From IMG/VR virus record IMGVR_UViG_3300050821_009523: a stretch of DNA of 64,000 nt; one strand, given 5' to 3'. Position numbers and translations under genes: made by a program. The notes beneath the pieces are model-generated. The model ran no database searches. It was given only the letters and a program-made list of their open reading frames with translations, and was not told the origin of the DNA. Source of the DNA: a virus. Its lineage: Duplodnaviria > Heunggongvirae > Uroviricota > Caudoviricetes. Below, in pieces: positions 13,431 through 52,070 of the stretch. Numbering within the stretch: the stretch's first letter is position 1; each line of letters opens with the position of its first letter.

Positions 13431-13843
13431 TGGAGTGCCTCGCTTACGAGCTGAGGCACAGCGGCAGCCCAGAGATCAGCCAGTTCGAGCGTGACATTGC
13501 GGAGCGCGGCAACGAGGAAGCGCGGGCCAGGATTGAAAAGCGTGAGCGCAACAAACCAGAGCTCTGGGCTGCCAACCGCTTGGCGTGGCGCGTCTTCTGG
13601 CACACGACGCGCGGGCGCAGTAACGGCATGGGCATGGGGCTCATTGCGCCAAGCGAGGTGGCGACTTACCTGCACACTTGGCTGCCGGAGCTGCACCTCG
13701 ACGAGGAGGAGCGCGAGGATTTGCTGCTTGCCGTCGAGCGCCTCGACGAGCGGTACTACAACCACCACAACAAGAAAAAGGACACACGGCCGCCCATTGT
13801 TGGCCCCGATGGGCGGCCCGTAGTGCCGAGCGGCGATGGCTGA
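13430..13843 (+). CDS. Tail assembly chaperone T-like segment (137 aa); likely expressed mainly as a -1 frameshift fusion with 12963-13430
   Basis: -1 frame relative to G. Start overlaps the G stop (TGATG). End overlaps the tape measure start. Confidence 0.5.
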   Translation: MECLAYELRHSGSPEISQFERDIAERGNEEARARIEKRERNKPELWAANRLAWRVFWHTTRGRSNGMGMGLIAPSEVATYLHTWLPELHLDEEEREDLLLAVERLDERYYNHHNKKKDTRPPIVGPDGRPVVPSGDG

Positions 13844-19800: not shown

Positions 19801-21611
19801 CCCTCGCCGCGATCAACAAGACTTGGGACGACGCCGAGAAGCTCGCAGGCAAGAACCATGCGGCGCTCGAAAAAATCAACAAGGACCGCGCCATAGAGAT
19901 CGCAGAGCTAAACGCACAGAGCCGTGCGGATATTTTTACTAAGGTGCGCGACTTCACGATGAACGGCAACGATAGCGTTGCGAAGCAAATGGACCAGGTT
20001 GGCGATAGCGCCAATACGCTGATCGCCTCGCTGCGCGAGCTGTGGAAGGCGGGTGTTATCACAACCCAAGAGCTACACCAAAATGCCAACGCTGTCCGCG
20101 CAGCCGCAAAGGCGCAGCAGGCGGCGCTCCTCGCGGCCTTTGAAAAAACCGTCAGCGATTTTATCAATGCGGGTAGCGGCAAAGCGTTCGCCGTTACGAG
20201 CGCTGTCGATGCCGTGGGGGACAGCGCTGACAAGCTGATCGCGAGCCTTACGGCGCTTGCACAGTCTGGCTACATCACGGCACAGCAGCTTGCGGACCAG
20301 TCCGCCGCCATCCGGCAAGCCGAGTTGCGGCAGCAGCAGGATATCGTCACGAATGCGGGTAACCAGTTGCTCCAAGAGCTTTACGGCTATCTGAAGGACG
20401 ATAAGGATGCCGCGAAACTCAAGTATGACCTCACGGTAGCGGATCTCCAAATGCGGCGCGCGGAACTGGAAATCGAGCTGACGACGCTCAATATGTCGAA
20501 GAGCATTTTGGCAGAGCTGGACCCGCTCATCGCAAAGGTGATCGCTGGCGGCCCAGCGCTCTTCGAAACAAATAGCAGCACCAACGCGGCAGCGGCGAGT
20601 AGCGCGACAGCCCTGTCAAACGCGCTCGATAGCGCCGTCACGTCGCTTAAGGAATTCCGCGACAGCTTGGGGCTCGACACCGCGCTGTCACCCTACACGC
20701 CGATGCAGCAATTCCAGATGGCGCAGGCCACCTATCAGCAGACTGCGCAGTTGGCGCTTACCGGAAATGCCCAAGCGATTCAGCAGCTCTCGACCGATGC
20801 GAAACAATATCTCACTGCCGCGCGCGCTTATCTGGGGAGCACCGAGGGTTATACAGAGATTTTCGACGCCGTGATGGCGTTGCTCAACAACATCCTGGCG
20901 GCGTTCCCCCCCGCTAGCACTACGGGCAACCAGCCGGCGGGACAGTTGACCGGGCCGGCCGGCCAGCCGCCGGATTACGTACTGGCATACGGCCCGAATG
21001 GTCAAACGGTACTCGTGCCGCCTGGCGCTGCCCTTGGCCCCGGGTGGAGTTTTGATCCGCAGCCACCCCCGCCGCCGGGCGGAGGCCCGAACATCGGCGG
21101 CGATCCGACGCACGGCCATGGCCCCGTGCCACCACCTAGTGGCGTGACGCCCCCCCCACCTGATCCGGCGGCGGCACTACAGACTCTGGCTGACAATGCA
21201 ACTACGGCCGCTGCGAATCTCGGGGCACTCGCCACCGGCTTCACTACGCTCGCGCAGGCACTTGCCGCAATGGCGGCGTCATTGCACGGACATGTGCCGG
21301 GCTTTGCGCTGGGAGGCGTTGTGTCGGGTGACCAGTTGGTGCGGGTAGGTGAGGGTGGGCCGGAGGCAATTATCCCGCTGGCGGGCGGCAGGGCCGTGCC
21401 TGTGCGGATTCAGGGCGGCGGCGCGCCAGCGGCCAGTAGTGACACCGGTGCGGTTGCAGCAGAAATCAGGGCGCTGCACGGCACGCTGATGACCGGTATC
21501 GTGCGGCTTGAGAAGGCGATTCTGAGCCAAGCTAGAGAGAACGCCACCACAAAGACTGCCGCGCAGCGCGCCAGCTCGCTTGTGCTTGTGGGGCGCCAAG
21601 TGAAGCAATGA
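13836..21611 (+). CDS. Tail tape measure protein (2591 aa)
   Basis: Giant Ala-rich helical ORF downstream of the G/GT chaperones. Hydrophobic segments around residues 340-780 typical of TMP cores. Coiled-coil repeats. C-terminal Pro/Gly-rich region. Confidence 0.85.
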   Translation: MADSESLLISVDPGGVVSGVRVAAASLDQLKASAASALTGVSGVTQAAGAFTGAASGMAQAAGTVTVALRTQSGAISQIAAQQAVMAQATQALATKYAGATGDMAAATTEWKAKVQEVYTYLLTGKEAFGSWATAGVTSYREVIDAVAEVETSLGLLMLTQGTYTTTAATATSATITEAAAMDALAAAIVQVREAQAATAGTGAVAGATQATTGVVNVTAIEAEAAARGADTTALNAEAAAAARLDAVLTDLAGKTTAASLRVMVAGDAPALALVNAELEQRDALIAAGAAMYSKEGEFIILNEAGAAAVRTQVVALQEQQAALAAVNAEQAETAGALGNIEAIGARMVIRMVLMGIVLALGAVVTKSVEAATAFENSMTRLQTLVGVSKTEADSYRGAMADIAVSTGQTADENAKAMFAITSEGMRGQSALDLLKASAEGAAVGLGDQTVVARTAAAAIEAYGAQNLSAKEAIGGLILAAREGNTTVESIASAFGRVLGVAAAVHVGFDDVISSIASFTRMGVSAQEAATGLRSTIQALELRNTKGANDALKTIGMSVASLREEIQSKGLAASLVDIVAKFNAAGSGAEAMAKIIPNIRGLAEVLSNANSQATAYVGISERVHAEMGTALDDANKIAEQNPANVFRQMTAAVGVAAIAIASGLLPQLVGVANAIKEAATSGDLQKWASVAATAFGGVVEIGKVLAAILANLPFLITAYAGSLAIAAAAETSVADAGAFVALRLEAIGAAIAANPVGAAAAAFVLLALAMNRVAVESIADSNAFLDETARMAAQEPVLARLRQGYDVLTKSIRDQGDALRENRDKGTVTAVPASTPSGSVTPGFGAQASTSANSFLGQMDAINKAYQVQVQAAGQDKTAVAAADAERTHEITNLQVSTQAFLDHARAVLTDRDAALKDQIANRDLVAEQLRQAQQRPTVRIGGADPITVRNPAIDQNAAALQNLNNQIKTNTTQLANDKAGLDAQQAALNKSKVAAQQTGTAHQDLAKGVQSAITAIKDQIALQAVEAADAAKVAQAELGGAEAVRQASIAAAADKQIREDVNKLVKAGMSDKAAETLVEKTYGDQIRKNATDLSNAAQEKARDAAIYQQGKTLAEAEAVAQAKVADAANGNTFASQQLTAQYRTEQEIERLFPNIHSADAEAFSAKQAAIENARVAGEKDSAAMKVQVEDSTKLREAEAALKDAIGNTTANSKELAIQLEAEKRIKEQGAAGDAVKVAAITAEVRSTRDSVDADKNKIEVLKDLAKYTDDEVKAEAKVQDLATRLGIERQMSPALAAIVAQYKELRTASEAVKTEELVQIEIAKKKIDLNATGAAAAIAQIRAEVIEREKTLDTLGKQEEALKQLADTEKSASATFGSDLKKSGEDAVVAWLTGTQVSFKNLLVQMDKDFADWLLKAGERALQENLAQKALGNLDSTFGGGGLPGQISVAFSGLDAAAQKIARAGDTMAGAGTVLRDSADIHTAAAATQTGAAATQTTAAVAHGAAATTQGAAAATNVGAAATHVVAAGTQVGAAGTQVGAGTTQVGASSTQTGAAATQSVAADTQVAAANENAASGAGNAAGGGGGLFGNIGSWFSGLGAGAIVGLIGAAVVIGAALIDSHQVDAWRARQYSTEANVSLTSGPQYSATGHLLSDFPAGAVNLGIGNMDATGQKFSEALQSFFMKFEQATGSILTQLPHIELQIKADGKDYAVVVAGQVIGFFQDVASATNAAIIAGLKAGNWKNLPQIIQDYITSATSPTGNQPAGVDPNVVLQNATTLKTIMDNYALALQGAGAAVSTTMQGFIDEADKMRQAVLSMHLSAQDTATMLSQIDATLAINIQAERDALTGHKESNAQMQAEEAAAFNAKKAIAVAQVLIDEQTILNMIATADATAGFGNAIGGVGAGIARTAEGMLKIVGVVTGGSQALVDAYNQLVAVEQQLQKIPDLKPGDVKIPGGSSSGASNAQQLADIFKQFDERNLGAYGKSLAAINKTWDDAEKLAGKNHAALEKINKDRAIEIAELNAQSRADIFTKVRDFTMNGNDSVAKQMDQVGDSANTLIASLRELWKAGVITTQELHQNANAVRAAAKAQQAALLAAFEKTVSDFINAGSGKAFAVTSAVDAVGDSADKLIASLTALAQSGYITAQQLADQSAAIRQAELRQQQDIVTNAGNQLLQELYGYLKDDKDAAKLKYDLTVADLQMRRAELEIELTTLNMSKSILAELDPLIAKVIAGGPALFETNSSTNAAAASSATALSNALDSAVTSLKEFRDSLGLDTALSPYTPMQQFQMAQATYQQTAQLALTGNAQAIQQLSTDAKQYLTAARAYLGSTEGYTEIFDAVMALLNNILAAFPPASTTGNQPAGQLTGPAGQPPDYVLAYGPNGQTVLVPPGAALGPGWSFDPQPPPPPGGGPNIGGDPTHGHGPVPPPSGVTPPPPDPAAALQTLADNATTAAANLGALATGFTTLAQALAAMAASLHGHVPGFALGGVVSGDQLVRVGEGGPEAIIPLAGGRAVPVRIQGGGAPAASSDTGAVAAEIRALHGTLMTGIVRLEKAILSQARENATTKTAAQRASSLVLVGRQVKQ
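18290..18560 (+). repeat. Internal tandem repeat in the tape measure gene encoding about 10 copies of an (A)AATQ(T/V)GAA-like motif
   Basis: Protein: TQTGAAATQTTAAVAHGAAATTQGAAAATNVGAAATHVVAAGTQVGAAGTQVGAGTTQVGASSTQTGAAATQSVAADTQVAAA. Confidence 0.5.
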
Positions 21612-24600
21612 GCGCCTATACGGACTTGCTGGCCGATGCGGACGCGCAGCTTGCGCTCCTTGTGGTGGTGTCGGGGCTCAACGCGCAATCCGGCCTCGTG
21701 GAGACGTACTACTTCTGCGACCAGGGGACGGCCAATACACCCGCGAGCGGCTTCATCACGGAGCCAACCGATACGCCGGCCAACCAGATCTTCGAACCGC
21801 GAATCATCTCGGCGCTATCGATCGACGCGTCTGTCGCGCAAAAGGACCAGTTTGGGGGCGAGAGCTTTCCCGCCTATGGCCCGTGGCAGTTTGACAACAC
21901 GGATGGCGGCAGCGCAACGCTCACGTCCCTCGTGGTTAGCGGCAATATCGCAACGGCTGCGTGTGCAAACCCGCACCCGTGGGGCAACGGCGCCCTAATC
22001 TCGATCCGCGGTGCGGCAAGCGCCGTCTACAACGTCACGCGGCAGCCCGTCACGGTGCCGGACGGCCCAGCGCCCACCACGTTTAGCTTTCCACTCGTGA
22101 CGGCCAACGCCACGGTCAGCGGGCCGCTTACCGCCACAAGCGGCCTCGACAATTGGCGGACGCTTTCGTTTGATGGGCAGTTGCTCATCGCGTACATCGT
22201 CGGCACGCGCTTTAACGGTACGGTTGTGGGTTGGGCGCAGGCAGGCGTCCCGTTTACCGGTACGGTGGCGGGTGACGCACTGGTGGACGAGCAGAAAGCC
22301 ACCCTGAATGCGCGTGACCTATCGGCGTATCTTTCGCGCGACGTGCAGACCCACCTCTACCGCGGCATGTCGAATTGCCTTGCGCTGGATGGCGCCACGC
22401 AGTATGCCGTCCTGACGAGTTTCGCAAGCAGCGCCGAAAAGACGTACGAGTGCTGGTTCCGCTGCAAGGGCAACAACGGCGCGGCCAACACCCAGACGGT
22501 TGCGTTTCAGGGGGTGCAGACCGGCGCGAATAACGAGGACTGGCACATTCAGATCGACACCGCGGGGCACGTTGGGTTTGTGGTATACAACGGGGGCGCC
22601 AGCAGCGTGGCCGTGACGGCAAGCACCGCAGACTACCGCGACGGAAAATGGCACCACGCGGCTTTGGCCATCACGACGGCTGGCGCGCTGATGTCAGCCT
22701 ATTTGGACGGCGTGCTGGTCGGCACCGCGACACCGGGTGCCTTCACGGTGCGTACCGGGAACCTCGTGGCGGGTGTCGGCACGGGTGGCAACTATTTCTA
22801 CGGCGAGATCGACGAGATCCGGTTCTGGTCCGTCGCGTTGGGGCAGCTTGAGATCCAGCAAAACATGGCACGCGAGCGCGTAGCGGACAGCCGCATGCGC
22901 GGCTATTGGCGTTGTAACGACAACATCAATAACTCGCTCTTTGACGCCAGCAACAACGGGCTCACCGGCAGGCTCACGGGCAACGTTGCGAACAATATGT
23001 GGACGTGGTCGGGCGAAGGTTACCCCGACATTGCGGGCCAGCAGAAGCCCTTTGCCGTAGGGCCAATTGCAGAATTTTCCCCTACGCTCGTGGACCCCGG
23101 CAGGCTTATCTACCAGGCCCATGACGGCGCCATCCTTGGTGTCCCGTGGGTTTGGGACAAGACGGGGCCGCTCACGCCGGCTGTGAGTTGGCAGATACTA
23201 GACGCGGCGCGCGGCTTTCTCCAATTGCTCGTCGCGCCGCAAGGTAAGATCTCATGCAGCGTCCAGCCGGCTACGAACATCTTTGGTAGTTGCCTGAGCT
23301 TTGACGGCGCTACGGGCTTTGCGAGTGCCACCTCGATGCCGTGCCCTGCCGGCAGCATGTCGCTCGAGGCACTCGTGCGCCTGCGGGCGATGAACGCGGC
23401 AAACGTAAAGATCGCTACCTTTTCGGCAAGTGGCGGCGTTGCGGCCGGGTTGCGGCAAGTGCAGTTTATGGCTGCTGGCCTAGCGCAGTTTAGCGTCCGG
23501 AACGACGCTGGCACTGCCTATAGCGCGACAGCTGCCGTGCCGGCAACACCAGGCTTGTGGTATTGGGTGGCGGGCGTGCTGGACGTACCGAACTTGCTGT
23601 TGACTCTCTATGTCAACGGCATTTCTGTCGCCACTGCCGCTGTGACAGGCACATTCAACACCGTGCTGTCCAACTTTTACATCGGGCGCCGCGATGATGC
23701 TGCGCAATACTTCCCTGGCGAGATCGACGAGGTACGCATCTGGAATGTTGTGCTCTCGGCCGCGACGATCAACGCCAACATGATGCGCGAATTGGCCGGC
23801 AACGAAACAGGCCTCGTGCACTATTGGGACTTTGACGACAACGCCGGCACCACAACGGCCGATGAGGTAGCGGGTGGCGCTACCGTGACGCTTGGCGGCC
23901 CAGCGGGTGTTGCGGCCTCAAGCACCGCCATCAGTGTGTCGAGCACGGACAACAGCTACAACCGTGCGGCGGGTAGTTTCGTGGCGGACGGCTTTACGGT
24001 GGGGCAACTGGTGCAGGCTTTTGGTTTCGCCAACGGCGCCAACAACGTGCAGTCCCGGATCGTGACGGTTGCGGCTGGCAAGATCACGGTCAACGTCTTG
24101 CTCACCACCGAGGCGGCTGCCACTGGCCAGACGCTTATCACAGCGGCCGGCTGCGCATGGGCGCCGTCGCGCTATTCGCGGGCAGACCTCGCGTACTGGC
24201 TCGTGACGGCCTCGCCCAATGCGCCGCTCAAGCCGGCGCAGATCGCCCTCGCGTCTTTCGTGCAGTTCAACATCGACGATAGCAGCGACAACGGCGAGTT
24301 GTGCGAGGCAAAGAAGGCGCGCACCTTCCTATCTGTCCTGGACGCGCTCATCAATTGGGACGGCTACTACGGCGGTACGCGCGCTGGCCTATTGCAGGTT
24401 GCATGCTTCAACCCGCCGACCGGCCTGACGTCAGCTGGCGACTTTGACGACAGCGCCATTACGGGCGATCTCGTACCAGTTGCACAGGCGCTCCCGGTCT
24501 ACGGCGTACAGGTCCAATATGCCCAAAATTGGGCAGTTTCTAGCCCGCAAGATATCATCGGGATCATTCAGTCGAACAGCGCGCGGTACAGCTTCGCCAC

Positions 24601-24919
24601 TAACCAATGGCGCACGGCGCCCAGCGGCCAGACGGTGCCGACCAGCACGTACCCAGATGGCGGCCTGCTGCTCGTCCCCACGACGCTACAGAGCCAAGCC
24701 GCGGCCCAAACGCTGTCGGACCGCCTTTACGGTATATACTCCGTACGGCATGACTACTACGAGGCGCCGCTAACGATCGTGCCGCTCTCCCTCGATACGG
24801 GTGCGGAGATCACCTTGCAGCGCAACCGGCTGGGCCTAGATGGCAAGCGGTGGTTCCGCCTCGTGGGGTACAAGACGGATGTCGATTTGCGGCAGATGAC
24901 CGCTAAAGTGTGGGCCTGA
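21608..24919 (+). CDS. Large tail protein (1103 aa) with two LamG/concanavalin-A-like lectin-type domains; candidate distal tail or baseplate protein
   Basis: Start overlaps the TMP stop. Two copies of a LamG_3-like signature (GEIDEIRFWSVALGQLEIQQNMARE and GEIDEVRIWNVVLSAATINANMMRE). Confidence 0.6.
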   Translation: MSAYTDLLADADAQLALLVVVSGLNAQSGLVETYYFCDQGTANTPASGFITEPTDTPANQIFEPRIISALSIDASVAQKDQFGGESFPAYGPWQFDNTDGGSATLTSLVVSGNIATAACANPHPWGNGALISIRGAASAVYNVTRQPVTVPDGPAPTTFSFPLVTANATVSGPLTATSGLDNWRTLSFDGQLLIAYIVGTRFNGTVVGWAQAGVPFTGTVAGDALVDEQKATLNARDLSAYLSRDVQTHLYRGMSNCLALDGATQYAVLTSFASSAEKTYECWFRCKGNNGAANTQTVAFQGVQTGANNEDWHIQIDTAGHVGFVVYNGGASSVAVTASTADYRDGKWHHAALAITTAGALMSAYLDGVLVGTATPGAFTVRTGNLVAGVGTGGNYFYGEIDEIRFWSVALGQLEIQQNMARERVADSRMRGYWRCNDNINNSLFDASNNGLTGRLTGNVANNMWTWSGEGYPDIAGQQKPFAVGPIAEFSPTLVDPGRLIYQAHDGAILGVPWVWDKTGPLTPAVSWQILDAARGFLQLLVAPQGKISCSVQPATNIFGSCLSFDGATGFASATSMPCPAGSMSLEALVRLRAMNAANVKIATFSASGGVAAGLRQVQFMAAGLAQFSVRNDAGTAYSATAAVPATPGLWYWVAGVLDVPNLLLTLYVNGISVATAAVTGTFNTVLSNFYIGRRDDAAQYFPGEIDEVRIWNVVLSAATINANMMRELAGNETGLVHYWDFDDNAGTTTADEVAGGATVTLGGPAGVAASSTAISVSSTDNSYNRAAGSFVADGFTVGQLVQAFGFANGANNVQSRIVTVAAGKITVNVLLTTEAAATGQTLITAAGCAWAPSRYSRADLAYWLVTASPNAPLKPAQIALASFVQFNIDDSSDNGELCEAKKARTFLSVLDALINWDGYYGGTRAGLLQVACFNPPTGLTSAGDFDDSAITGDLVPVAQALPVYGVQVQYAQNWAVSSPQDIIGIIQSNSARYSFATNQWRTAPSGQTVPTSTYPDGGLLLVPTTLQSQAAAQTLSDRLYGIYSVRHDYYEAPLTIVPLSLDTGAEITLQRNRLGLDGKRWFRLVGYKTDVDLRQMTAKVWA

Positions 24920-31475: not shown

Positions 31476-32504
31476 TTAGTGTATCACCTGCGCGCTGCCT
31501 GGCAGCGCGATCATCGGGACGGGCGATGCGCCGCCGCCAATGTAGAGCGGGTATTTCCCATCCCACTTTGACTGTAGGATCTCTAGCCGCTTCCATTCAA
31601 GCAAGGTGGGGGTGATGGACGAGGTAAGCGCGGCATTCGCCCTTGCTTCGCCCTCGGCAACCGCCACCCGCTTGTTGGCCTCGGCCTGCGACACTTTCAG
31701 CTCATTTACCGCCTGCTCTGCCTTCTGCACCGCCGCTACCTTGGCGTTGATCGCCTGCTGGATCTCGGGCGGATAATGCAGCTTCCCGATGATGCCCAGC
31801 TGTTCGATAGTCAAGCCGTATTGGGCAGTCATCTGGCTTAGTAGCGCGAGCACGGCATGTTCGTAGGCAGCGCGTTTCGTGCTATTGATCTCGTCGGCCG
31901 TGAAGTTACCCGAAAGGCGCCCAAACGCGATACGGGCCGTGTTGTGCAGGAACCCGTCAGTGAACGTTTTCAGATCATCGCTACGGAACTTGACATAGAA
32001 CGCCGGCACGTCCTTGTCCACGAGGTGGTAGGAAAGCGATACGTCGGCGCCCACCACCATGTTGTCACTGGTGTTGAATGTGATCTCCTCGTTGGGGTTT
32101 CCCTCGGCGGCATCCTTGGACCACACGACGGTTTGCACGTATGTCGGATATTGGAAGACCGTCGATCCGAACGGCATGTAGAAAACCCACCCGGTGGAGA
32201 GTGGCAGTTGGTTGACGCCGCGGTTGTCGCCTGCGTTCGATACCTTGATCCCCACATGGCCCGGGCCGATGCGCGTGCAGCCGGTAAGCAGCGGCACGAA
32301 AAGCGCCACCGCTACGAGGCGCAGCATCCACCGCCATGCGCTGGGAAAAACGGCGACACAGGCAGCGCACAGGCCGAGAATCAAAAAGATCCCCGCTGCA
32401 TTCTCCGCGTCGTCGCGCTGGTTGAGTAACGGCAGTATGAGAGTAAACAGATAGGCGCACACCACCGCGCCCAGGATCATGCATGCGATTTTCAGCGGCC
32501 TCAT
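31476..32504 (-). CDS. SPFH / band-7 (HflK/C, prohibitin, stomatin-like) domain membrane protein. An internal Met gives a lipoprotein signal (MLRLVAVALFVPLLTGC)
   Basis: SPFH-like region FRSDDLKTFTDGFLHNTARIAFGRLS...AEANKRVAVAEGEARANA. N-terminal TM segments and an LTGC lipobox. The alternative start is near 32327. Confidence 0.65.
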   Translation of the reverse strand: MRPLKIACMILGAVVCAYLFTLILPLLNQRDDAENAAGIFLILGLCAACVAVFPSAWRWMLRLVAVALFVPLLTGCTRIGPGHVGIKVSNAGDNRGVNQLPLSTGWVFYMPFGSTVFQYPTYVQTVVWSKDAAEGNPNEEITFNTSDNMVVGADVSLSYHLVDKDVPAFYVKFRSDDLKTFTDGFLHNTARIAFGRLSGNFTADEINSTKRAAYEHAVLALLSQMTAQYGLTIEQLGIIGKLHYPPEIQQAINAKVAAVQKAEQAVNELKVSQAEANKRVAVAEGEARANAALTSSITPTLLEWKRLEILQSKWDGKYPLYIGGGASPVPMIALPGSAQVIH

Positions 32505-32618: not shown

Positions 32619-32861
32619 CTAAACGCACCTGGCGGTATCGCAATTTTTCAGCGAGCAGCCGTTCGTGCAGTCCGTGATGCAGGTTAGCCCCTGCGTGCAC
32701 TGACAACTGATCGTGCAGCCGGCCCCCGTTCTGCAGTCTCCAGTCGCCGGGGGCTCCGACTGATCGCCGCAACCGCCACGGGCCACTCTCAGAAGCGCCG
32801 TCCGATCCAACGCCCGGATGGTTTCCTTGTTGAGGCTGAGCCGCCTTCGGTTCTTCTTCAT
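32619..32861 (-). CDS. Cys-rich peptide precursor with double-glycine-type leader (80 aa): leader MKKNRRRLSLNKETIRALDRTALLRVARGG, core with 10 Cys and many Thr/Ser
   Basis: Strong RBS AGAGGAGAAGGAC before the ATG. Non-hydrophobic leader ending GG. Core CGDQSEPPATGDCRTGAGCTISCQCTQGLTCITDCTNGCSLKNCDTARCV. High-GC3 codon usage consistent with the neighbouring genes. Confidence 0.5.
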   Translation of the reverse strand: MKKNRRRLSLNKETIRALDRTALLRVARGGCGDQSEPPATGDCRTGAGCTISCQCTQGLTCITDCTNGCSLKNCDTARCV

Positions 32862-33306: not shown

Positions 33307-33492
33307 TCACGTCGGCCTCCGCTTTGGGTCTTCCCACTTGTAGTGCGTCGCCTTGAAGGCGCGGACCCGTATTCGGTGGGGCCGCCGCGCGTCCCGTTGA
33401 TTTTCCGTCTGGCACAGTTTACCGGGCCGCGCGCCGCACTTGGGGCACGCTGTCTCGACTTCGCACTGCCACTGGTAGCGCGGTGTCATCAT
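33307..33492 (-). CDS. Small basic zinc-ribbon-like protein (61 aa)
   Basis: CPKCG...C motif. Start overlaps the PurA-like gene stop. Confidence 0.35.
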   Translation of the reverse strand: MMTPRYQWQCEVETACPKCGARPGKLCQTENQRDARRPHRIRVRAFKATHYKWEDPKRRPT

Positions 33493-34763
33493 GGTGTATC
33501 CTCCACAAACTGCATAACCTCGGTTTCGCGTGCTGTCGCGGCCGTAGGTCCATGCAGCGTAAGTGCTACCGGCACGTAGCAGCTGTCCTCGATAGCCGCA
33601 ATAAGGTCCTCTGCGTACGAATATTGCGGCGCGGCGTGCTCCATTACGTGGGTGCGTGAGTCTGCCTGTATATTCGAGAGCTTGACGCGGTCGGGCAGGC
33701 GCTTTAGTCCGGCATAAAGGTAGTTGTTGGCGTAGCGCGCCGTCGGCCTTCTGTCCATGTGCGTTATGGCGAGCACATCAGGCTTGGCGGAGGCGCAGGC
33801 GTAGCGCGCCGTCACCATGTCGAAGCACCCGACGCGGAATGGCCCCATCCAGTGGTGCAGGCTGTTGTGCTGCTCGGGCACTCGTTGTGCTAGCGCGGCG
33901 TATTCTGTAGGAAACGGCCCGGGGCCGTGGCGCGTAGCGTAGCTGCGCAGGACGCCGATATGTAGCCGGTCGGTGCAGCCAACCTCATTGAGCAGTGTGT
34001 CTGCATTGTGAAACGTAGCGTCTGTCCAACTGTTGTAAGGCGCAAAGCCGTGTACCGCATCGATGAGCAAGCCCTGTGCGCCCTCAAAGACGACGGCGTC
34101 CGCTTTGGCGAGCACGTTGTTTGTGGTGCGTAGCTCCATTTCCCCGAGCGCGTCCTGGTAATTAGCAACGATCTCGGCCGGTACGATCTTTTGCGCCTCG
34201 CGGTATTGTTGGTTTGCAGTGCCGAGCGGCCGTAATTGAGACAACGTCAGTGCGCGGATGAATGTCAGTAATGCTTCGCCCGCTGCCGCAGCGTCAGCGC
34301 GGCCCACAACGTCGCCCACACGCAGGGCCAGATCCTGCGATGCACTTACCAGCGCCTCGCCCACACCGAGCCCTACGCTGCCGTGCCGCGCGGCACCGCG
34401 CTCTATCTCGCGTGCCTGACACAGCAGCCGGTGCCAAGGCGTCACGATCACGCACCGCGGATCTATCGAGATGCGCGGGCGCAGCCCCTTGCAGGTGAGC
34501 ACTTGGCGCTCGACGTCGAGAGCCAGCGGATCGACGATCATAAAGCGCGATAGGTGGGTAGCGGCGCCAGCGAGCGTGCCGGCGCCGAATTGGCTAAAGC
34601 CGTGCGTGGTGCCGGTTTCGGCGTCCACGACGTGGTGCAACGCTTGCGGGCCGCCGTTGTAGCGCACCACAATGTCGGCCTTGTGCTTGCGCACCAGGAA
34701 GTCGGTCAGGCAACCTTTCCCCTCATCGCCGTATCCCAAGCCCGCAACGCAATAAGCTCTCAT
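33489..34763 (-). CDS. Adenylosuccinate synthetase family protein (PurA/PurZ-like), divergent
   Basis: GLGYGDEGKGCLTDFL matches PurA GTQWGDEGKGKIVDLL. VVRYNGGPQALHHV matches VVRYQGGHNAGHTL. VFEGAQGLLIDAVHG matches MFEGAQGTLLDIDHG. YATRHGPGPFPTE matches YSTRVGAGPFPTE. The aspartate-binding loop GATTGRRRRTGWLD is replaced by HHWMGPFRVGCFDMV. Start refined to Met 52 of the listed ORF. Confidence 0.7.
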   Translation of the reverse strand: MRAYCVAGLGYGDEGKGCLTDFLVRKHKADIVVRYNGGPQALHHVVDAETGTTHGFSQFGAGTLAGAATHLSRFMIVDPLALDVERQVLTCKGLRPRISIDPRCVIVTPWHRLLCQAREIERGAARHGSVGLGVGEALVSASQDLALRVGDVVGRADAAAAGEALLTFIRALTLSQLRPLGTANQQYREAQKIVPAEIVANYQDALGEMELRTTNNVLAKADAVVFEGAQGLLIDAVHGFAPYNSWTDATFHNADTLLNEVGCTDRLHIGVLRSYATRHGPGPFPTEYAALAQRVPEQHNSLHHWMGPFRVGCFDMVTARYACASAKPDVLAITHMDRRPTARYANNYLYAGLKRLPDRVKLSNIQADSRTHVMEHAAPQYSYAEDLIAAIEDSCYVPVALTLHGPTAATARETEVMQFVEDTP

Positions 34764-34970
34764 GAGCAGCGCTCCGCCGGCTTGTGCGTGGCGCGCCACT
34801 CTGCGATGGCCTGCTGCTGCGTGAGGCCGCGCGCCGCAGCGCAGAGGAGCCAAAGGCCAGGGATTTCGTACCGTGCGCCAGCGTGCGTGCTGACGCCAAC
34901 CTTGCCGTCGAAACAATTCAACTCGTAATCCATAGCCTTTGGCCCTCCCGGTGCCGTATGCCGATGTTCG

Positions 34971-35987
34971 TTACAGCCGCTCGACCTCGCTGGCGTCGCC
35001 CACCACAGCCGGCAGGCCGGCTGCAGAGTATTTGTCCAGCGCGCCGCCGCCGCCAGCCTTTGCGAGCGGCACGAGCGCCTTGGCCATCGCGTCCGTGATG
35101 ACGCCGTCCGTGAGCATGTCCTGGACGCCGACGTGCTCCTCGCACAGCGCCACGGCCGCCACGATCGTCTCGCAGATCTTGTTGGGCTCGTCCAGCTTGA
35201 GGACGTTTTGCTGGCCGAGGAGCGCCTGCCAGTAGCGGCGCAGCTCGTCGTCGTGGTAGTGCTGTGTCATGTTGGGGATGACGAAGAAAACGTGGTACCG
35301 CTGCTGCGCCTCCCGCACGATCTCTTCCAGCGGGATGTTGGCCTGGATCTTGTCGCCGATGATCGCCGCCACTTGCTCGCGCGACACCTGCGGGTAGGCG
35401 TGCTCGTCGCCGATGAGAAAGAGGTAGCCGCGTCGCCCCCTTTTCTCCCAATTGTCGTGCGCCGTCTTGCGGGCGTAGAAGTACAGGCCCAGCTCGTATG
35501 ACTCCTGGTAGGTGCCCCCGCCGTTAGCTGTCAACCAGATGTTTTCGAGGTCGTTGTCGATCTCAAGGCCGGACTCGAACTGGCCGACTTGTAGTGCGCC
35601 CTCGCCACGTATGCTACTCATCGCGTCGTAGTCATCCACCGCGCCGATGCAGATGGCTGGGTAGGCGTCGCCGATGTAGCGCTTGCCGCTGGCCTTGTCG
35701 TCGAGAAAGGCGCCCATCAGTTTGGTGAGCCGTTCTTCGATGATGCCCGGCACATCGCGCATGCTGCCGGTGGTGTCGAGCAAGAGCCCGATCGGGAGAG
35801 AGACGGGGTGCGCGTCGCTGTCGCGCGCCTCGCGCACCTTGACGCCCTTGGGGCTCAGGCTCGCATGGACGCCGTGCGCCTTGCCGCTGGCCACCGCTGC
35901 GGTGTGCTTGAACACCGGCGTGGCGGTCGCCAACCGGGCCGCTACGCGGGCACTGTAAGCCGTGCTGCTGTAAACGCTGCCTCCCAT
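34971..35987 (-). CDS. von Willebrand factor type A (vWA) domain protein (338 aa)
   Basis: MIDAS motif LLLDTTGSM (D-x-S/T-x-S), then downstream T and D residues. Start at the internal Met with RBS AAAAGGAGCAA. The upstream part of the listed ORF is low-complexity. Confidence 0.65.
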   Translation of the reverse strand: MGGSVYSSTAYSARVAARLATATPVFKHTAAVASGKAHGVHASLSPKGVKVREARDSDAHPVSLPIGLLLDTTGSMRDVPGIIEERLTKLMGAFLDDKASGKRYIGDAYPAICIGAVDDYDAMSSIRGEGALQVGQFESGLEIDNDLENIWLTANGGGTYQESYELGLYFYARKTAHDNWEKRGRRGYLFLIGDEHAYPQVSREQVAAIIGDKIQANIPLEEIVREAQQRYHVFFVIPNMTQHYHDDELRRYWQALLGQQNVLKLDEPNKICETIVAAVALCEEHVGVQDMLTDGVITDAMAKALVPLAKAGGGGALDKYSAAGLPAVVGDASEVERL

Positions 35988-36006
35988 GGTGTTGCTCCTT
36001 TTCCTG

Positions 36007-36990
36007 TCAATTGACTGGTATGTCCAGCCGGACGAACTGCGGTTTGCCGTATTCGGTGAGGGCCACTTCGCGCCAGCGGTCGTGGAGTTGAAACACGCTT
36101 TCTGGCCGCGCGGCCGGAGACTCTGCCGTGCACCACTCAAACAGGCCACGAAAGCGCTTGGGTATCGTATCGCCCTTGCCCGCCGCGCGGCTGGCGGCGT
36201 ACCACATCGCGGCAGCCGCCATGTAGATATCGGTGGCACAGTAAGCGTCTTTCTTGAACACCTCGGGCGGGTAGTGTGCCCGCCACTTCTTAGAAACCAA
36301 CGGTATGTGCCACTTGCTTGGAAAATCGACACTGCACACCCAATCCACCAGGACAAGTCCGTGGTCGTCCGGCCTGTAGAGAAGATGGTGCGGCAGCACA
36401 GCGCCGTGGATCAGGCCGTGGCTGTGGGCATAGCCGAGAATTTCTAGTAGCCGGTTCATCATCCACACCACATGCCGAAACGGCAAGCCACCAGGAAACG
36501 CCTGCCGGATGTGCGTCAGCGGCAAGCAGCCTTGCGCCAGAGACAGCACGTTAACCGCGCGGCCAGATGCCTCAAAAGCATCGTGCACTAGCGGCAGGTA
36601 ACGCTTGAAAGCGTCCGTTTTATTGTCTGCGTGCAGCGTCTTAAGAGCTGCGCGTTCTTGCGCGAGCAGCGCGTTGTCGCTAGCGGTGCGCACGATCTTG
36701 GCTACCGCCTCGGTGCCATCGAAAGCCACGAGGTAAAGATCGGAGATCGCGCCGCGCGCCAACGGCGCAGTGACGGTCCACTTACCCAGCTTGATGGCCG
36801 GCGCGTTGCCGTTGACAAGTGCATGCATCTCGCCTAGCCGCTTAAAGGCGCGCTCGGCCCTGTCGCGCTGGGCGGCCTCGATCCTGTCCGGGTGGCAGAG
36901 TGCGGCTAACTGCTTAAAGGTGGCCGCCGCAAAGATGTCCGCCGGCACCTTGGCGCACTCGATCAGGCGCAGCGCAGCTTCGGTTGTCAC
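36007..36990 (-). CDS. J-domain (DnaJ-like, HPD motif) fused to a protein-kinase-like domain lacking the catalytic HRD aspartate (probable pseudokinase)
   Basis: N-terminal FKQLAALCHPDR...RAFKRL (J domain). Kinase-like VAKIVR (beta3 Lys), LAQERAAL (alphaC Glu), HGLIHGAVLPHHLL in place of HRDLKPxN, and LVDW in place of DFG. Confidence 0.55.
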   Translation of the reverse strand: MTTEAALRLIECAKVPADIFAAATFKQLAALCHPDRIEAAQRDRAERAFKRLGEMHALVNGNAPAIKLGKWTVTAPLARGAISDLYLVAFDGTEAVAKIVRTASDNALLAQERAALKTLHADNKTDAFKRYLPLVHDAFEASGRAVNVLSLAQGCLPLTHIRQAFPGGLPFRHVVWMMNRLLEILGYAHSHGLIHGAVLPHHLLYRPDDHGLVLVDWVCSVDFPSKWHIPLVSKKWRAHYPPEVFKKDAYCATDIYMAAAAMWYAASRAAGKGDTIPKRFRGLFEWCTAESPAARPESVFQLHDRWREVALTEYGKPQFVRLDIPVN

Positions 36991-37298
36991 AGCGCTGGCC
37001 TCTCGGAAAGCTGGCGCCCGCGCGATGCGCGCACGTAAGCGCGGTGCCAGAAAGCCTCTGCCGGCGTGCGCCCGTCATCGTATTCACGGCGCCACGCGTC
37101 TGCCTTCCACTGGTCAGCTTCATGCTGCTTGACACCGCCTTTTGATACGGCATAGGCACGCAGCTCATCAAACCAAGGCGGGAATGCCGCGAGGCTCCTA
37201 CGGCGCAGCAGCAGCCACCCCGCAAGCGCACCGAACGCGCCGCATCCGAAGGAGTAAAGGCCAATCGAGACGGCCGGGAGCCACCATAAACCGTCCAT
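36987..37298 (-). CDS. Small single-TM membrane protein (103 aa)
   Basis: Start at the internal Met with RBS GGGGGGA. TM helix WWLPAVSIGLYSFGCGAFGALAGWLLL. TAATG overlap with the upstream gene. Confidence 0.4.
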   Translation of the reverse strand: MDGLWWLPAVSIGLYSFGCGAFGALAGWLLLRRRSLAAFPPWFDELRAYAVSKGGVKQHEADQWKADAWRREYDDGRTPAEAFWHRAYVRASRGRQLSERPAL

Positions 37299-37582
37299 TA
37301 GTCTCCCCCCGCACCTTGCGCGAGCGAATGGGGGCGCAGTAACTTCGTGTCGTGTGGCGCCTCCGGCCGGCCGGAGGCGCCCCACAACTCCCACCGCGTC
37401 TCGAAACGCACGCGCTCCATCCGCAATTGAATCAACTCGTCTTCCAGTTGCGCCGACGTTTGGTTCATCGCGGGTGCTGGCGATTCCTGGCAACGGTGGA
37501 TCGCTTCGATCACTGCCGCTTCGAGGTGGTCGAGCACTTCACGGTTTACCCCAACTACCGGTGCTATTTCCCCGTTGGACAT
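37298..37582 (-). CDS. Hypothetical protein (94 aa)
   Basis: Co-oriented. Overlaps the RuvC-like gene end and the downstream gene start. Confidence 0.35.
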   Translation of the reverse strand: MSNGEIAPVVGVNREVLDHLEAAVIEAIHRCQESPAPAMNQTSAQLEDELIQLRMERVRFETRWELWGASGRPEAPHDTKLLRPHSLAQGAGGD

Positions 37583-38097: not shown

Positions 38098-38351
38098 GAC
38101 ACTGCCCCGATGACCTCGACGTACAACGACTCAGCAAAGTGTCCCTTGCTCTCCCTGCCGTCGTGGTCGAAGCGCACATCGATCAGCGATTCGTACGGAT
38201 AACTGCCGAGCACCTTGCATGCCCTGCGCCCGTACCAGCGCAGCACGGTAGCGGGCTGCACCGTCATGGAAAGGGGTGTCGTGATGTCGTCGCGGAACAG
38301 CATACTGTCGAACACCATGACACGCGTGCCGGGGTAGTAAATCTCAGGCAT
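38094..38351 (-). CDS. Hypothetical protein (85 aa)
   Basis: 4-nt overlap with the upstream gene. Protein-like composition. Confidence 0.35.
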   Translation of the reverse strand: MPEIYYPGTRVMVFDSMLFRDDITTPLSMTVQPATVLRWYGRRACKVLGSYPYESLIDVRFDHDGRESKGHFAESLYVEVIGAVS

Positions 38352-49937: not shown

Positions 49938-50727
49938 AACAGTTACGGCGGCACCGGCGCCGTCCCTAACGCCTGTCGAAAAAATCGGCGACATATGGGT
50001 GAAACGCGACGACCTCTATACCTTTGGTGGCGTCTGCGGCGGAAAGGTGCGCACCTGTGTGGCACTTGCCAGCGGCGCAACAGGGGGCCTTGTGACGGCC
50101 GGGTCCCGCAGCAGTCCGCAGGTCAATATCGTGGCGCATGTGGCCGCCGCCATGGGTTTGCCCGCGTGCGTGCATACACCCGCGGGCAAACTATCGCCAG
50201 AGGTGGAGGCAGCGGTGGCGGCCGGCGCAGCGCTCGTACAGCATACGGCTGGCTACAATAACGTGATAATTGCGCGGGCGCGGGACTGCGCCAAGGTTAG
50301 GGGCTGGTGTCTTATTCCTTTTGGGATGGAGTGCGCGGCGGCAATCGAAAACACTGCTGCACAGGTAGCAAATGTGCCGGCTGGCGTCAAGCGCATCGTC
50401 GTGCCGGTTGGGAGCGGTATGTCGCTCATTGGCATACTCCACGGCTTGCGGAACGCCGGGCGGCTGGTACCGATACTTGGTGTCGTGGTTGGTGCCGATC
50501 CGGCGGCTCGCCTTACGCGGACAGCGGCGTGGTGGCAGTGTGGAGCGCCATTCGAGATCTTTAAGGCACCTGTTCCCTATTCTCGGTCCGTATCCAGGAG
50601 CCTCGGGGCAATAACCCTCGACCCGATTTACGAAGCGAAGTGCGTGGACTATTTGCGTGCAGGCGATCTATTCTGGATTGTCGGTATTAGGCAAACGGCA
50701 CTGGCGCAGGGTGTGGCGGCTGCATGA
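49924..50727 (+). CDS. PLP-dependent enzyme of the ACC deaminase / D-cysteine desulfhydrase family (fold type II), 267 aa
   Basis: IWVKRDDLYTFGGVCGGKVRTCVALASGATGGLVTAGSRSSPQVNIVAHVAAAMGLPACVH aligns with DcyD [64 protein letters not shown]. The PLP Lys is in the GGK context. Confidence 0.65.
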   Translation: MLPFETVTAAPAPSLTPVEKIGDIWVKRDDLYTFGGVCGGKVRTCVALASGATGGLVTAGSRSSPQVNIVAHVAAAMGLPACVHTPAGKLSPEVEAAVAAGAALVQHTAGYNNVIIARARDCAKVRGWCLIPFGMECAAAIENTAAQVANVPAGVKRIVVPVGSGMSLIGILHGLRNAGRLVPILGVVVGADPAARLTRTAAWWQCGAPFEIFKAPVPYSRSVSRSLGAITLDPIYEAKCVDYLRAGDLFWIVGIRQTALAQGVAAA

Positions 50728-52070
50728 CGTTGTTTCTTCCGGGGCTTGAACCCGGCAGCGCCCAGGAGATCGCCGATCGCAAACTCGCTACCCGCTTCGG
50801 AGTTCCGCCCTTCACCGTGCTGGACGCGCGGCAGGGCTATTGGCGGCAACGAAAAAACGCATGGCTGCAACTCGGCATCCAGAGCGAGATAGGACGTGGC
50901 TTCAATCTCCCGAGCCAATCCAGTGATGGTGATCCGGCCATGCGCACTTTTGATACTGAATACAAGGGTGGCGACGCATGGGCTGGCCGCGGCGCATTCT
51001 GGGGCGGCGCTATGGCGGACGGACGCGCGATCTTTCGCAGTGCCGTGGATGGCGCCAACAGAGAGCATCCCGCGACGCAGCGCAAGCGTGCTGGTGCATT
51101 CCACGATCCCGGATCGCGCGCGTCTAATTACACATCAGCATTCGACATTAACGGCCCCGACGGTAGAAGGCGATTGGATAGGGAGGAGATTGCCGCACAG
51201 GGCAGCAGCGGCCTCTCTGGCCTAACGTATGGCGCAGCGCCAGCAGCCGCTTTCGACTACTACCGCGTCAAAGAGGGCGCCAAAGAGAGCAGTACGGTGT
51301 CAGGCACCAGCGTCTTCGACCCTGTACTGTGCGAGCTTTTCTACAGTTGGTTTACGCCGCCCGGCAGCACGGTGCTGGACCCCTTTGCCGGCGGCAGCGT
51401 GCGCGGCATAGTGGCGTCGCGTCTAGGGCGCCGGTACGTTGGCATCGAGCTGCGCGAGGAGCAACTGGACGCAAACCAAGAGCAGGCGTGCGATATCTGC
51501 CGGACAGATGATCCGGTCCCGCGGTGGCTGCTGGGCGATGCGCGGGAGGTGGCGGCGCTCGCCGGCAGCATGGGGCCTTACGGAGCTGTCTTCGGATGCC
51601 CGCCTTATGGGAATCTCGAGCGCTACAGCGACGACGAGCGCGACCTATCTACGCTGGATTGGCCCGAGTTTGCAGCTGAGTACCGCAAGGTGATCGCCGC
51701 ATGTTGTGCACTGTTGGCGCCCAACCGTTTCGCGGCCTTCTGCGTGGGTGACTTTCGGGACAAGGCAGGCGCTTACCGCTGCTTCCCTGAATACACAGCG
51801 GCGTGCTTTGCCGCCGCAGGGCTCACGAAATACAACCATTTTATTCTCGTGACGCCGGCCGGTAGCTTGCCGCTGCGCGTGGGTGCACAGTTCTCTGCTG
51901 GCCGCAAGGCCGGCACCAGCCACCAGCATTTGCTCGTGTTCGTCAAAGGTGATGGCCGTGCGGCTGCCGATGCGTGCGGGCCGGTGGACGTGAATCTCGA
52001 TTGGGTGCGGCAGGAAACAGATGCCGGCGAGACGGAGCCGGAAACCGAGGACGCGCCGTGCACGACCTGA
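50724..52070 (+). CDS. DNA methyltransferase (amino-MTase; N6-adenine or N4-cytosine), 448 aa with an N-terminal extra domain
   Basis: Motif I-like VLDPFAGGSVRG, then motif IV-like FGCPPYGN. Start overlaps the PLP-enzyme stop. Confidence 0.55.
   Translation: MTLFLPGLEPGSAQEIADRKLATRFGVPPFTVLDARQGYWRQRKNAWLQLGIQSEIGRGFNLPSQSSDGDPAMRTFDTEYKGGDAWAGRGAFWGGAMADGRAIFRSAVDGANREHPATQRKRAGAFHDPGSRASNYTSAFDINGPDGRRRLDREEIAAQGSSGLSGLTYGAAPAAAFDYYRVKEGAKESSTVSGTSVFDPVLCELFYSWFTPPGSTVLDPFAGGSVRGIVASRLGRRYVGIELREEQLDANQEQACDICRTDDPVPRWLLGDAREVAALAGSMGPYGAVFGCPPYGNLERYSDDERDLSTLDWPEFAAEYRKVIAACCALLAPNRFAAFCVGDFRDKAGAYRCFPEYTAACFAAAGLTKYNHFILVTPAGSLPLRVGAQFSAGRKAGTSHQHLLVFVKGDGRAAADACGPVDVNLDWVRQETDAGETEPETEDAPCTT

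Follow-up and report, generated by a model that had tools for sequence, protein, structure and literature searches.

A mobile gene cassette of phages and bacteria that pairs a divergent vWA protein with a PurA-family enzyme and often includes a J-domain/kinase-like protein

Here, we describe a gene cassette carried by a virus of the class Caudoviricetes, on a 64,000-nucleotide stretch of IMG/VR virus record IMGVR_UViG_3300050821_009523 (hereafter, the window). The region of interest, on the minus strand, is one copy of a conserved, mobile cassette that is present in unrelated phages and in bacterial chromosomes. Its core consists of a protein with a von Willebrand factor A (vWA) fold (34971..35987) and a divergent member of the PurA family (33489..34763). 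A protein joining a J domain to a kinase-like domain (36007..36990; hereafter, the J-kinase) is a frequent third member, whereas a transmembrane (TM)-type protein of 103 residues encoded next to it in the window (36987..37298) is not conserved. The cassette is very probably a real functional unit. We found no published account of the combination of vWA, PurA-like and J-domain/kinase proteins, including in work on jumbo phages, on NAD–ADP-ribose conflict, on the NAD+ reconstitution operons NARP1–3 and on RyDEP, and PADLOC does not catalogue the cassette as a defence system. An initial annotation of this region, made from its sequence, had taken the combination to be undescribed, and this view held: although assembled from familiar folds, the cassette is categorically new as a system.

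Recurrence of the cassette in phages and bacteria

The gene arrangement [J-kinase]–vWA–PurA-like recurs in ~80 loci. Among these are loci in phages (Cluster C mycobacteriophages and phages of Rhizobium and Vibrio), in 42 IMG/VR contigs, and in bacterial chromosomes. Approximately 200 Cluster C mycobacteriophages carry all three genes. The J-kinase and vWA protein of the window are ~34% identical to gp249 (annotated as "kinase") and gp250 of Bxz1/Catera-type Cluster C mycobacteriophages, and the gene order in Catera is gp248 (small), gp249 (kinase), gp250, gp251 (small), and gp252 (PurA-like). Matches in the phage database were nearly identical in number for the two core proteins: 201, 10, and 6 in Mycobacterium, Rhizobium, and Vibrio phages for the vWA protein versus 202, 10, and 6 for the PurA-like protein. 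Vibrio phage Va1 and Rhizobium phage RHph_TM30 encode the vWA protein followed directly by the PurA-like protein, without the kinase. Among the 42 IMG/VR loci, which were retrieved with a vWA profile, the PurA-like gene lies directly downstream of the vWA gene in 40, and a kinase-like gene is present in 36, mostly directly upstream and in four cases downstream.

The cassette is also found outside phages. Using contigs from one genome per species, we recovered 36 genome loci, mostly from Planctomycetota (on contigs of up to 5 Mb), with others from Ilumatobacteraceae (Actinobacteria), Terriglobia, and Clostridia; the PurA-like gene adjoins the vWA gene in most of them. Further actinobacterial loci come from Spirillospora, Micromonospora, and a metagenome-assembled genome (MAG) of Streptosporangiaceae. 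In one planctomycete locus, the cassette is flanked by housekeeping genes, with a fumarase gene upstream.

No true fusion of the vWA and PurA-like genes was found among the homologues. Three candidates were discarded: L035 and P0345 proved to be frameshifted reads of adjacent genes, and the extra length of P0248 is an intein. In P0345 and in L035, L036, L038, and L039, which are MFD long-read MAGs, the vWA and PurA-like genes appear frameshifted or falsely fused, which may reflect either long-read indel error or real decay.

Protein families of the cassette and their operon in the window

The PurA-like protein (424 amino acids (aa); 33489..34763, minus strand) matches the Pfam family Adenylsucc_synt with an E-value of 2e-48. 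We aligned it with E. coli PurA and phiVC8 PurZ and took a census of 72 distinct cassette-linked sequences, using E. coli PurA numbering throughout. Several residues are largely retained in this clade: Asp13, Lys16, and Gln224 in 70 sequences each, His41 in all 72, Thr239 in 68, and the guanine-specifying Asp333 in 66. The window protein likewise has Asp13, His41, Gln224, and the P-loop, the latter as GDEGKG (34713-34730). Other positions have changed. Val273 is replaced by His in 72/72 and Asn38 by Gln in 71/72; Thr129 has become Cys in 66/72 (Val in the window), and Arg143 is also changed. Thr300 is replaced by Trp (61/72) and Thr301 by Gln (67/72), Arg303 is deleted in every sequence, and Arg305 gives way to a hydrophobic residue in 69/72. 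At positions 300, 301, 303, and 305, the window protein has W, M, a gap, and F, within a remodelled acceptor loop, HHWMGPFRVG (33828-33857). In canonical PurA, Thr300, Thr301, Arg303, and Arg305 bind L-aspartate, whereas Thr129 and Arg143 bind the 5′-phosphate of inosine monophosphate (IMP). Because the aspartate pocket is gone and the 5′-phosphate site is altered, we infer that the enzyme keeps the phosphoryl-transfer chemistry of PurA and that its substrates are not IMP and aspartate. By these sequence features, it is a separate PurA subfamily, neither PurA nor PurZ.

The PHROG label attached to the protein, "2-aminooxy adenylosuccinate synthetase", is of the PurZ type and suggests a role in a Z-genome. 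We rejected this reading, and regard the label as misleading, as Asp13 is kept in the window protein and in 70/72 relatives; in phage PurZ, this position is Ser in every one of 147 sequences (100%; PMC12884076). The tblastn matches of the PurA-like protein include no true PurZ phages. None of DatZ, MazZ, DutZ, DmtZ, and DpoZ is annotated beside the cassette in Catera, Va1, or RHph_TM30, although no systematic search for them was made. A count of 481 phage PurA homologues assigned only 147 to PurZ and found very few to be canonical (PMC12884076); the cassette-linked clade falls in the remainder that this survey left unassigned.

The vWA protein (338 aa; 34971..35987, minus strand) begins with MGGSVY and escapes sequence profiles. 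Profiles from Pfam, NCBIfam, PADLOC, and PDB did not recognise it as vWA, the Pfam VWA family gave no match at E ≤ 1, and precomputed Pfam matches on 120 homologues were likewise empty. Its identity came from structure only, by which it has the Rossmann-like vWA fold, with the vWA domain of NorD among the structural matches. The protein belongs to phrog_2971, whose function is unannotated. The family is large: it has more than 853 homologues (the best 120 at 54–69% identity), and in a set of 1.84 billion representatives it accounts for 1,386 clusters (50% identity; E ≤ 1e-10). The initial annotation had read a vWA protein with a metal-ion-dependent adhesion site (MIDAS) from the translation, and this was confirmed: D71, T73, G74, S75, M76, T153, D194, and E195 are invariant in 38 homologues. 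The MIDAS motif DTTGSM (residues 71–76) lies at 35760..35777 and the second MIDAS strand, LIGDEHAY, at 35394-35417, both on the minus strand.

Three further features distinguish the family. An N-terminal extension of ~60 residues starts with Met-Gly in essentially every homologue, whether from actinophages, Vibrio phages, or Planctomycetes, and the family profile aligns from residue 1 onwards in almost every one of the top 150 matches. The motif RE(S/A)RDSxxHP is invariant. Finally, the C-terminal tail is disordered; most members have G-x-x-[RK]-[LIVFM] as its last residues, and the window protein has ...VERL. Two kinds of interruption were seen in single homologues or groups of them. P0248, a homologue of 581 aa, has an intein placed immediately ahead of its MIDAS strand FIIGDE, and in some Cluster C phages, Quasimodo and CharlieB among them (hits H71-H80, H114), an insert of ~760 bp annotated as an HNH endonuclease interrupts the homologue of gp250. 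Inteins and endonuclease insertions usually mark functionally critical sites.

The C-terminal tail tracks with the third gene. Among 75 distinct full-length vWA homologues, a kinase-like gene is present in 40 and absent in 4 of those with the tail, versus 14 and 17 of those without it (Fisher p = 2e-5); a J domain with HPD was found in 32 and not found in 12 of those with the tail, versus 6 and 25 of those without (p = 6e-6), counts that are uncorrected for phylogeny and thus offer a lead rather than proof. Given this co-occurrence, we propose the tail as a handle, and the pattern suggests that the J-kinase, or the DnaK that it may recruit, engages the vWA protein through it.

The J-kinase (327 aa, GTG start; 36007..36990, minus strand) consists of a J domain (residues ~1–60) followed by a kinase-like domain (~66–320). 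Searched alone against Pfam, the window protein gave marginal matches to DnaJ (E = 0.012, under the gathering score) and Pkinase (E = 0.03); it belongs to phrog_3043, annotated as "kinase" (2e-41). At the family level the assignment is firm. We found 88 homologues, and a Pfam scan of 54 of them recovered Pkinase in 38 and DnaJ in 31, with a best E-value of 2e-26. Profile searches had been named in the initial annotation as the check on its domain calls, and they recovered DnaJ and Pkinase in this family-wide sense, whereas the vWA fold was missed by them. The HPD motif (residues 33–35; 36886..36894) is flanked in the structure model by helices 25–32 and 39–60; H33 and D35 are invariant in the 54 homologues and P34 is at least 90% conserved, in agreement with the J domain initially proposed.

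The remainder of the model is a bilobal kinase fold, very confidently predicted, and the family profile matches casein kinase 2 (CK2) in PDB with an E-value of 5e-10. The β3 Lys (K98) is at least 90% conserved, as are G196, A197, and W217, and the αC Glu (E112) is invariant together with H195, H210, and Y240. By contrast, the HRDxxxxN catalytic loop is lost. The degenerate sequence HGAVLPHH (residues 195–202; 36385..36408) stands in place of HRDxKPxN; in the alignment with CK2, HGAVLPxH lies over HRDVKPHN. As first read from the translation, the catalytic Asp is missing: it is absent in 54/54 homologues, the position being Ala, and the catalytic-loop Asn position is mostly His across the family. 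The glycine-rich loop is cut down to one Gly with acidic residues. One earlier reading needs amending. LVDW (residues 214–217; 36340..36351) is indeed present and was first taken as a replacement of DFG, but it aligns with the LIDWG of CK2 and is therefore the DWG-type counterpart of DFG, its Asp being kept in most homologues and replaced by Gly in a few. From these features, we judge the protein to be a Hanks-type pseudokinase that would act as a J-domain adaptor, or perhaps an enzyme of an atypical kind, and its J domain plausibly recruits host DnaK. PADLOC returned only weak generic kinase matches for it (PD-T4-6, MkoA, PglW, and mad6). In six planctomycete loci (L009, L017, L018, L020, L027, and L028), the kinase-like proteins lack the J domain and carry the N-terminal motif SVLSWLxDGYWPT instead.

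In the window, the cassette lies within an unbroken string of open reading frames (ORFs) on the minus strand, running from 37582 to 33489. The upstream end is orf94 (37298..37582; 94 aa), whose stop codon overlaps the start of the 103-aa protein gene (TAATG); the latter overlaps the J-kinase start in turn (GTGA). A 19-nt spacer with an aaggag ribosome-binding site (RBS) precedes the vWA gene. Next comes orf57 (34760..34933; 57 codons), which the initial annotation did not report; it has its own RBS (gggaggg) and shares an ATGA overlap with the start of the PurA-like gene. The vWA gene is thus not directly upstream of the PurA-like gene, as had been stated, since orf57 intervenes. A consensus scan of the minus strand from 33000 to 38500 found 0 terminator-like and 0 σ70-like sites. 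These junctions, together with the absence of internal terminator- or promoter-like sites, support the co-transcription claimed in the initial annotation for the genes from the TM protein to the PurA-like enzyme, although they do not prove it. The 103-aa protein has a hydrophobic segment (residues 4–31) followed by RRR, with a maximal 19-residue Kyte–Doolittle mean of 1.48, and is probably a single-TM protein or signal anchor; it has a weak match to phrog_519. It shares the operon, as had been noted, but does not belong to the conserved unit. None of orf94, the 103-aa protein, and orf57 has a significant match in any of 87 comparison loci, and we rejected all three as cassette members; orf94 has no PHROG match either. 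In close relatives, other genes occupy the upstream and small-ORF positions: an ORF of 62 aa, a gene for a metallophosphatase, or a set of three small ORFs, one of which encodes a RyR-domain protein. The small ORF in the slot between the vWA and PurA-like genes differs from phage to phage.

The window as a whole is that of a phage, encoding a minor tail protein, a DnaB-like helicase, a further helicase, a ParB-methyltransferase, and a RuvC-like resolvase. The identical proteins are also encoded on an environmental contig of ~97 kb, and no near-identical DNA was found in the reference phage collection. Several other genes deserve mention. A membrane "lipoprotein" resembling SPFH/band-7 proteins (31476..32504, minus strand; phrog_200, 1e-61) lies ~1 kb beyond the 3′ end of the PurA-like gene on the same strand. 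Between them, an 80-aa ORF (32619..32861, minus strand) has an N-terminal half that is basic and leader-like, followed by a C-terminal half rich in Cys, Thr, and Gly (…CTISCQCTQGLTCITDCTNGCSLKNCDTARCV). It has no PHROG match and looks like a phage-encoded precursor of a ribosomally synthesized and post-translationally modified peptide (RiPP) or of a lanthipeptide-type product. Two very large ORFs, of 2,591 aa (13836..21611, plus strand) and 1,103 aa (21608..24919, plus strand), follow the minor tail protein gene, and the smaller matches only PHROGs of unknown function. The window also encodes a ParB-like N-terminus fused to a DNA methyltransferase (50724..52070, plus strand; phrog_12517/498/15396) and a transposase-like protein (2070..3263, minus strand; phrog_4285).

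Gene neighbourhoods, a working model, and competing explanations

In bacteria, the cassette typically makes up the downstream portion of an operon that begins with the gene for an NrtR-like Nudix-wHTH regulator. Homologues of this regulator occur in 22 loci, of which 13 are planctomycete and 5 are on large IMG/VR contigs; their genes mostly lie upstream and on the same strand. In Spirillospora, Micromonospora, and the Streptosporangiaceae MAG, a gene with NUDIX and WHD_NrtR domains stands directly before the kinase-like gene. All-against-all clustering of locus ORFs, with confirmation by Pfam, added two recurrent neighbours, NADAR and ADP-ribosylglycohydrolase (ARG). NADAR (PF08719) is encoded in 8 loci, among them Va1, where Va1_035 lies ~1.1 kb upstream of the vWA gene. 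ARG (PF03747) is found in 6 planctomycete loci. PncA homologues lie in 5 loci. In one locus, L090, genes for PncA, PncB, an NAD-dependent ligase, and Ham1 precede the cassette and an NrtR-like gene follows it. Regulators of the NrtR family respond to ADP-ribose, and the pathways under their control are mostly those for making and salvaging NAD (PMC2330246). The same study listed nrtX-nrtY, genes under NrtR control whose function is unknown; a match between these and the cassette or NARP1-like genes could not be established. On this evidence, a connection of the cassette to NAD/ADP-ribose stands at about even chances.

Two single loci add observations of their own. In L045, an 82-aa ORF with a RyR domain (PF02026; 7181-7429, plus strand) is inserted between the vWA gene and a kinase-like gene whose product is 54% identical to that of the window; phage RyR-domain proteins (RyDEP) are cyclic ADP-ribose glycosidases inserted in NAD-rebuilding NARP1 operons (PMC13232231). 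In RHph_TM30 (L005:942-3269), gp010-gp013 encode a HAD hydrolase, a ComF-like PRTase_3 protein, and a NUDIX protein (annotated as "cytidyltransferase") 3–5 kb upstream of the vWA/PurA-like pair; a HAD protein with a phosphoribosyltransferase resembles a nucleoside-like metabolite module linked to Ter systems (PMC7824862).

From these data, we propose a working model in which the PurA-like protein would be the catalytic effector, with its GTP-dependent phosphoryl-transfer machinery kept (P-loop, Asp13, His41, Gln224, and Asp333). Retention of this machinery makes it probable that the enzyme activates an oxo group by phosphorylation and swaps in a nitrogen nucleophile, on a new nucleotide substrate. 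The vWA protein would be its obligate partner; the MIDAS metal probably holds an acidic residue of the partner or target, and the N-terminal Met-Gly with its ~60-residue extension is the likeliest contact with the enzyme. The J-pseudokinase would act as an adaptor whose kinase-like domain binds the complex, probably via the ...G-x-x-R-L tail of the vWA protein, and whose J domain would fire DnaK there, so that the complex is assembled, remodelled, or switched. The phage cassette, which has no regulator, most likely acts early, countering or exploiting host immunity based on NAD+ or ADP-ribose, possibly by restoring or diverting a nucleotide pool or by neutralising an ADP-ribose-derived product. 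Taken as a whole package (a ligase of new specificity, a vWA partner, a J-pseudokinase adaptor, and NAD+/ADP-ribose counter-defence), the model is tentative, and we place it somewhat below an even chance.

A sharper version can be stated. The vWA and PurA-like proteins would form a new enzyme system of NAD+/ADP-ribose conflict, in which a GTP-dependent ligase couples an activated oxygen of a nucleotide or ADP-ribose-derived molecule to a new nitrogen nucleophile, the J-pseudokinase hands the complex to DnaK, and phages, including all of Cluster C, thereby defeat NAD-depleting or ADP-ribose-signalling immunity. Candidate nucleophiles would be nicotinamide or ammonia, giving one-enzyme rebuilding of NAD+ or adenylates, or the invariant N-terminal glycine of the vWA protein, giving a protein–nucleotide adduct. 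In this specific form, we consider the proposal doubtful.

Several observations weigh against the model. The NrtR family also controls pathways outside NAD metabolism, such as pentose use (PMC2330246). In the window itself, tblastn with NrtR, ARG, NADAR, PncA/B, Ham1, and other queries found no homologue. Across 28 viral loci, no family dominated the 150 flanking ORFs; NADAR, NUDIX, RtcB, an RNA ligase, and cREC each occurred once, and because these flanks are so heterogeneous, the link to NAD/ADP-ribose rests mainly on the bacterial loci. We draw the contacts between the three proteins, and those with DnaK, only from co-occurrence, with the tail counts subject to the phylogenetic caveat given above. 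The J-kinase is missing from some loci, and the J domain from some planctomycete kinases, so DnaK recruitment would not be essential to the core. The kinase-like protein keeps its Lys, Glu, and DFG-type Asp, leaving room for an unusual catalytic activity, and aspartate could still be a substrate of the PurA-like enzyme if its pocket were built in another way.

The neighbourhoods also invite a different account, in which the bacterial cassette is an ADP-ribose-induced immune or abortive-infection system and the phage copies were captured for superinfection exclusion or as decoys. The upstream NrtR-like repressor, with ARG and NADAR alongside, fits this account and resembles the ARG-centric host systems that include a vWA "chaperone" and have been predicted to act against ADP-ribosylation by viruses (PMC9503650), and several chromosomal copies look frameshifted or decayed, although these come from long-read MAGs in which sequencing error is an alternative. 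Nevertheless, PADLOC gave no match for the vWA or PurA-like protein, the planctomycete locus examined has housekeeping flanks, and the cassette is far commoner and better conserved in large phages of lytic type, including all Cluster C mycobacteriophages. We therefore regard this account as unlikely.

Ordinary purine metabolism, with the PurA-like enzyme making adenosine monophosphate or 2-aminoadenine precursors for phage DNA or RNA while the vWA protein and J-kinase regulate or stabilise it, would explain the strong Adenylsucc_synt match, the PurZ-type PHROG label, the retained Asp13, His41, and Gln224, and the fumarase gene in one planctomycete locus. It sits poorly with the binding sites: the aspartate-binding residues Thr300, Thr301, Arg303, and Arg305 are replaced or deleted in about all 72 sequences, and Thr129 and Arg143 are changed. 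Nor is the enzyme PurZ, given its Asp13 and the absence of true PurZ phages from its tblastn matches, and the bacterial cassettes sit in NrtR/ADP-ribose loci rather than pur operons. This reading is quite improbable.

Alternatively, the cassette could be a chaperone or assembly module, with the J domain (acting with DnaK) and the vWA protein as co-chaperones that fold or assemble complexes of the phage or host and the PurA-like protein as a GTP-driven switch rather than a ligase. PurA is a P-loop NTPase, and the co-occurrence of the tail and the J domain fits such a module. MoxR–vWA systems use Mg-dependent, peptide-binding vWA co-chaperones, and jumbo phages sporadically encode J-domain proteins (PMC7824862). 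However, the cassette has no AAA+ MoxR partner, it also resides in chromosomes with no virion genes nearby, and the PurA-like protein conserves residues of chemistry (the Asp13 base, the His41 acid, and Gln224) beyond those needed to bind a nucleotide. We give this module a low probability.

A similarly low standing attaches to the possibility that the kinase-like protein is an active, non-canonical enzyme, using AMPylation or glutamylation as in SelO and SidJ, or another base, to modify the vWA protein, the PurA-like protein, DnaK, or a host target. The confidently predicted kinase fold, the retained β3 Lys (≥90%), invariant αC Glu, and DFG-type Asp, and the additional conserved residues H195, H210, and Y240 (invariant) and W217 (≥90%) speak for activity; the missing HRD Asp and catalytic-loop Asn, the reduction of the glycine-rich loop to one Gly with acidic residues, and the Gly in place of the DFG Asp in some members speak against it. 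Lastly, a TerY-P-like phospho-signalling triad of vWA sensor and Ser/Thr kinase with the membrane protein as anchor, the likeness drawn in the initial annotation from the shared operon of a vWA protein, a kinase fold, and a small hydrophobic protein, is very improbable, because the catalytic Asp is absent in 54/54 homologues, His stands in for the catalytic-loop Asn, the glycine loop has degenerated, no PP2C or FHA protein was seen in the window operon or related loci, the vWA protein matches neither Pfam VWA nor TerY models, the constant partner is the PurA-like enzyme and not a phosphatase, and the TM protein is not conserved.

Should the working model prove correct, three genes that hundreds of sequenced phages carry together, among them ~200 genetically tractable Cluster C mycobacteriophages, would have been overlooked. 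The PurA family would gain a third functionally distinct branch beside PurA and PurZ, and because the nucleophile pocket has been rebuilt, new nucleotide-ligation chemistry would be likely. The J-kinase would be a rare case, in phages and bacteria, of a J-domain adaptor on a pseudokinase, tying a nucleotide enzyme to the Hsp70 system. Its NrtR/ARG/NADAR/PncAB neighbourhoods would place the cassette in NAD+/ADP-ribose immunity and counter-immunity, a field in which the newly solved operons (NARP1–3 and RyDEP) each revealed new biochemistry. The cassette is also highly testable, as the Cluster C mycobacteriophages that carry it can be engineered.

Comparison with known systems

Phages reconstitute NAD+ by NARP1 (Adps and Namat), NARP2 (Nampt and Nmnat), and NARP3 (PnuC and an NadR-like protein). 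Like the cassette, these are small mobile phage operons, and NARP1 can host an RyDEP insertion, as one relative of the cassette has a RyR-domain ORF. The four cassette proteins gave no match to the enzyme families of NARP1–3 in Pfam, PHROG, or NCBIfam, and an NAD-rebuilding role for the cassette is speculation.

The closest published relatives on the bacterial side are ARG-centric, Nudix-HTH-regulated systems of actinobacteria and planctomycetes, which include a vWA "peptide-binding chaperone" among their variable parts (Iyer, Burroughs, Anantharaman & Aravind 2022, PMC9503650). The planctomycete and actinobacterial cassettes share with them the NrtR-like regulator and the ARG and NADAR neighbours. 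In contrast, the cassette in the window and in phages lacks ARG, a phosphatase, and a Nudix-HTH/WYL regulator, and its vWA and PurA-like proteins form the core rather than an accessory. The survey has no mention of a PurA-like enzyme or of a J-domain/kinase protein (PMC9503650), and the vWA component may have been glimpsed in it.

A MIDAS-containing vWA protein paired with a P-loop NTPase is also seen in the MoxR/vWA pairs RavA–ViaA, CbbQ–CbbO, and NorQ–NorD; in the cassette, the NTPase is a PurA-family enzyme and not an AAA+ ring ATPase. The J-kinase has parallels in Rki of phage RB43, a phage J-domain protein, and in GAK (auxilin-2), a eukaryotic protein that joins a kinase domain to a J domain. 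In viral J-domain proteins such as Rki and in GAK, an HPD J domain directs the host Hsp70. The J domain of the cassette protein differs in being N-terminal, its kinase is degenerate, and its gene stands in fixed synteny with those of the vWA and PurA-like proteins.

The TerY-P triad, an account of which dates to Anantharaman, Iyer and Aravind in 2012, reportedly combines the TerY vWA protein with a PP2C phosphatase and a Ser/Thr kinase. It resembles the cassette in that one conflict-associated operon encodes both a vWA protein and a kinase fold of the Hanks type. The cassette, unlike TerY-P, has no PP2C and no catalytic base, its vWA protein is divergent, its kinase-like protein bears a J domain, and its constant partner is of the PurA family. 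Finally, the cassette enzyme shares with PurA and PurZ the PF00709 fold and conserves the P-loop, His41, Gln224, and the TRxGxGP motif. It differs from PurZ in keeping Asp13, and from both in the replacement of Thr-Thr-Gly-Arg-x-Arg by Trp-Gln-Gly-x-Φ-Arg, in the changes of Thr129 to Cys and Val273 to His, and in being always paired with a vWA protein.

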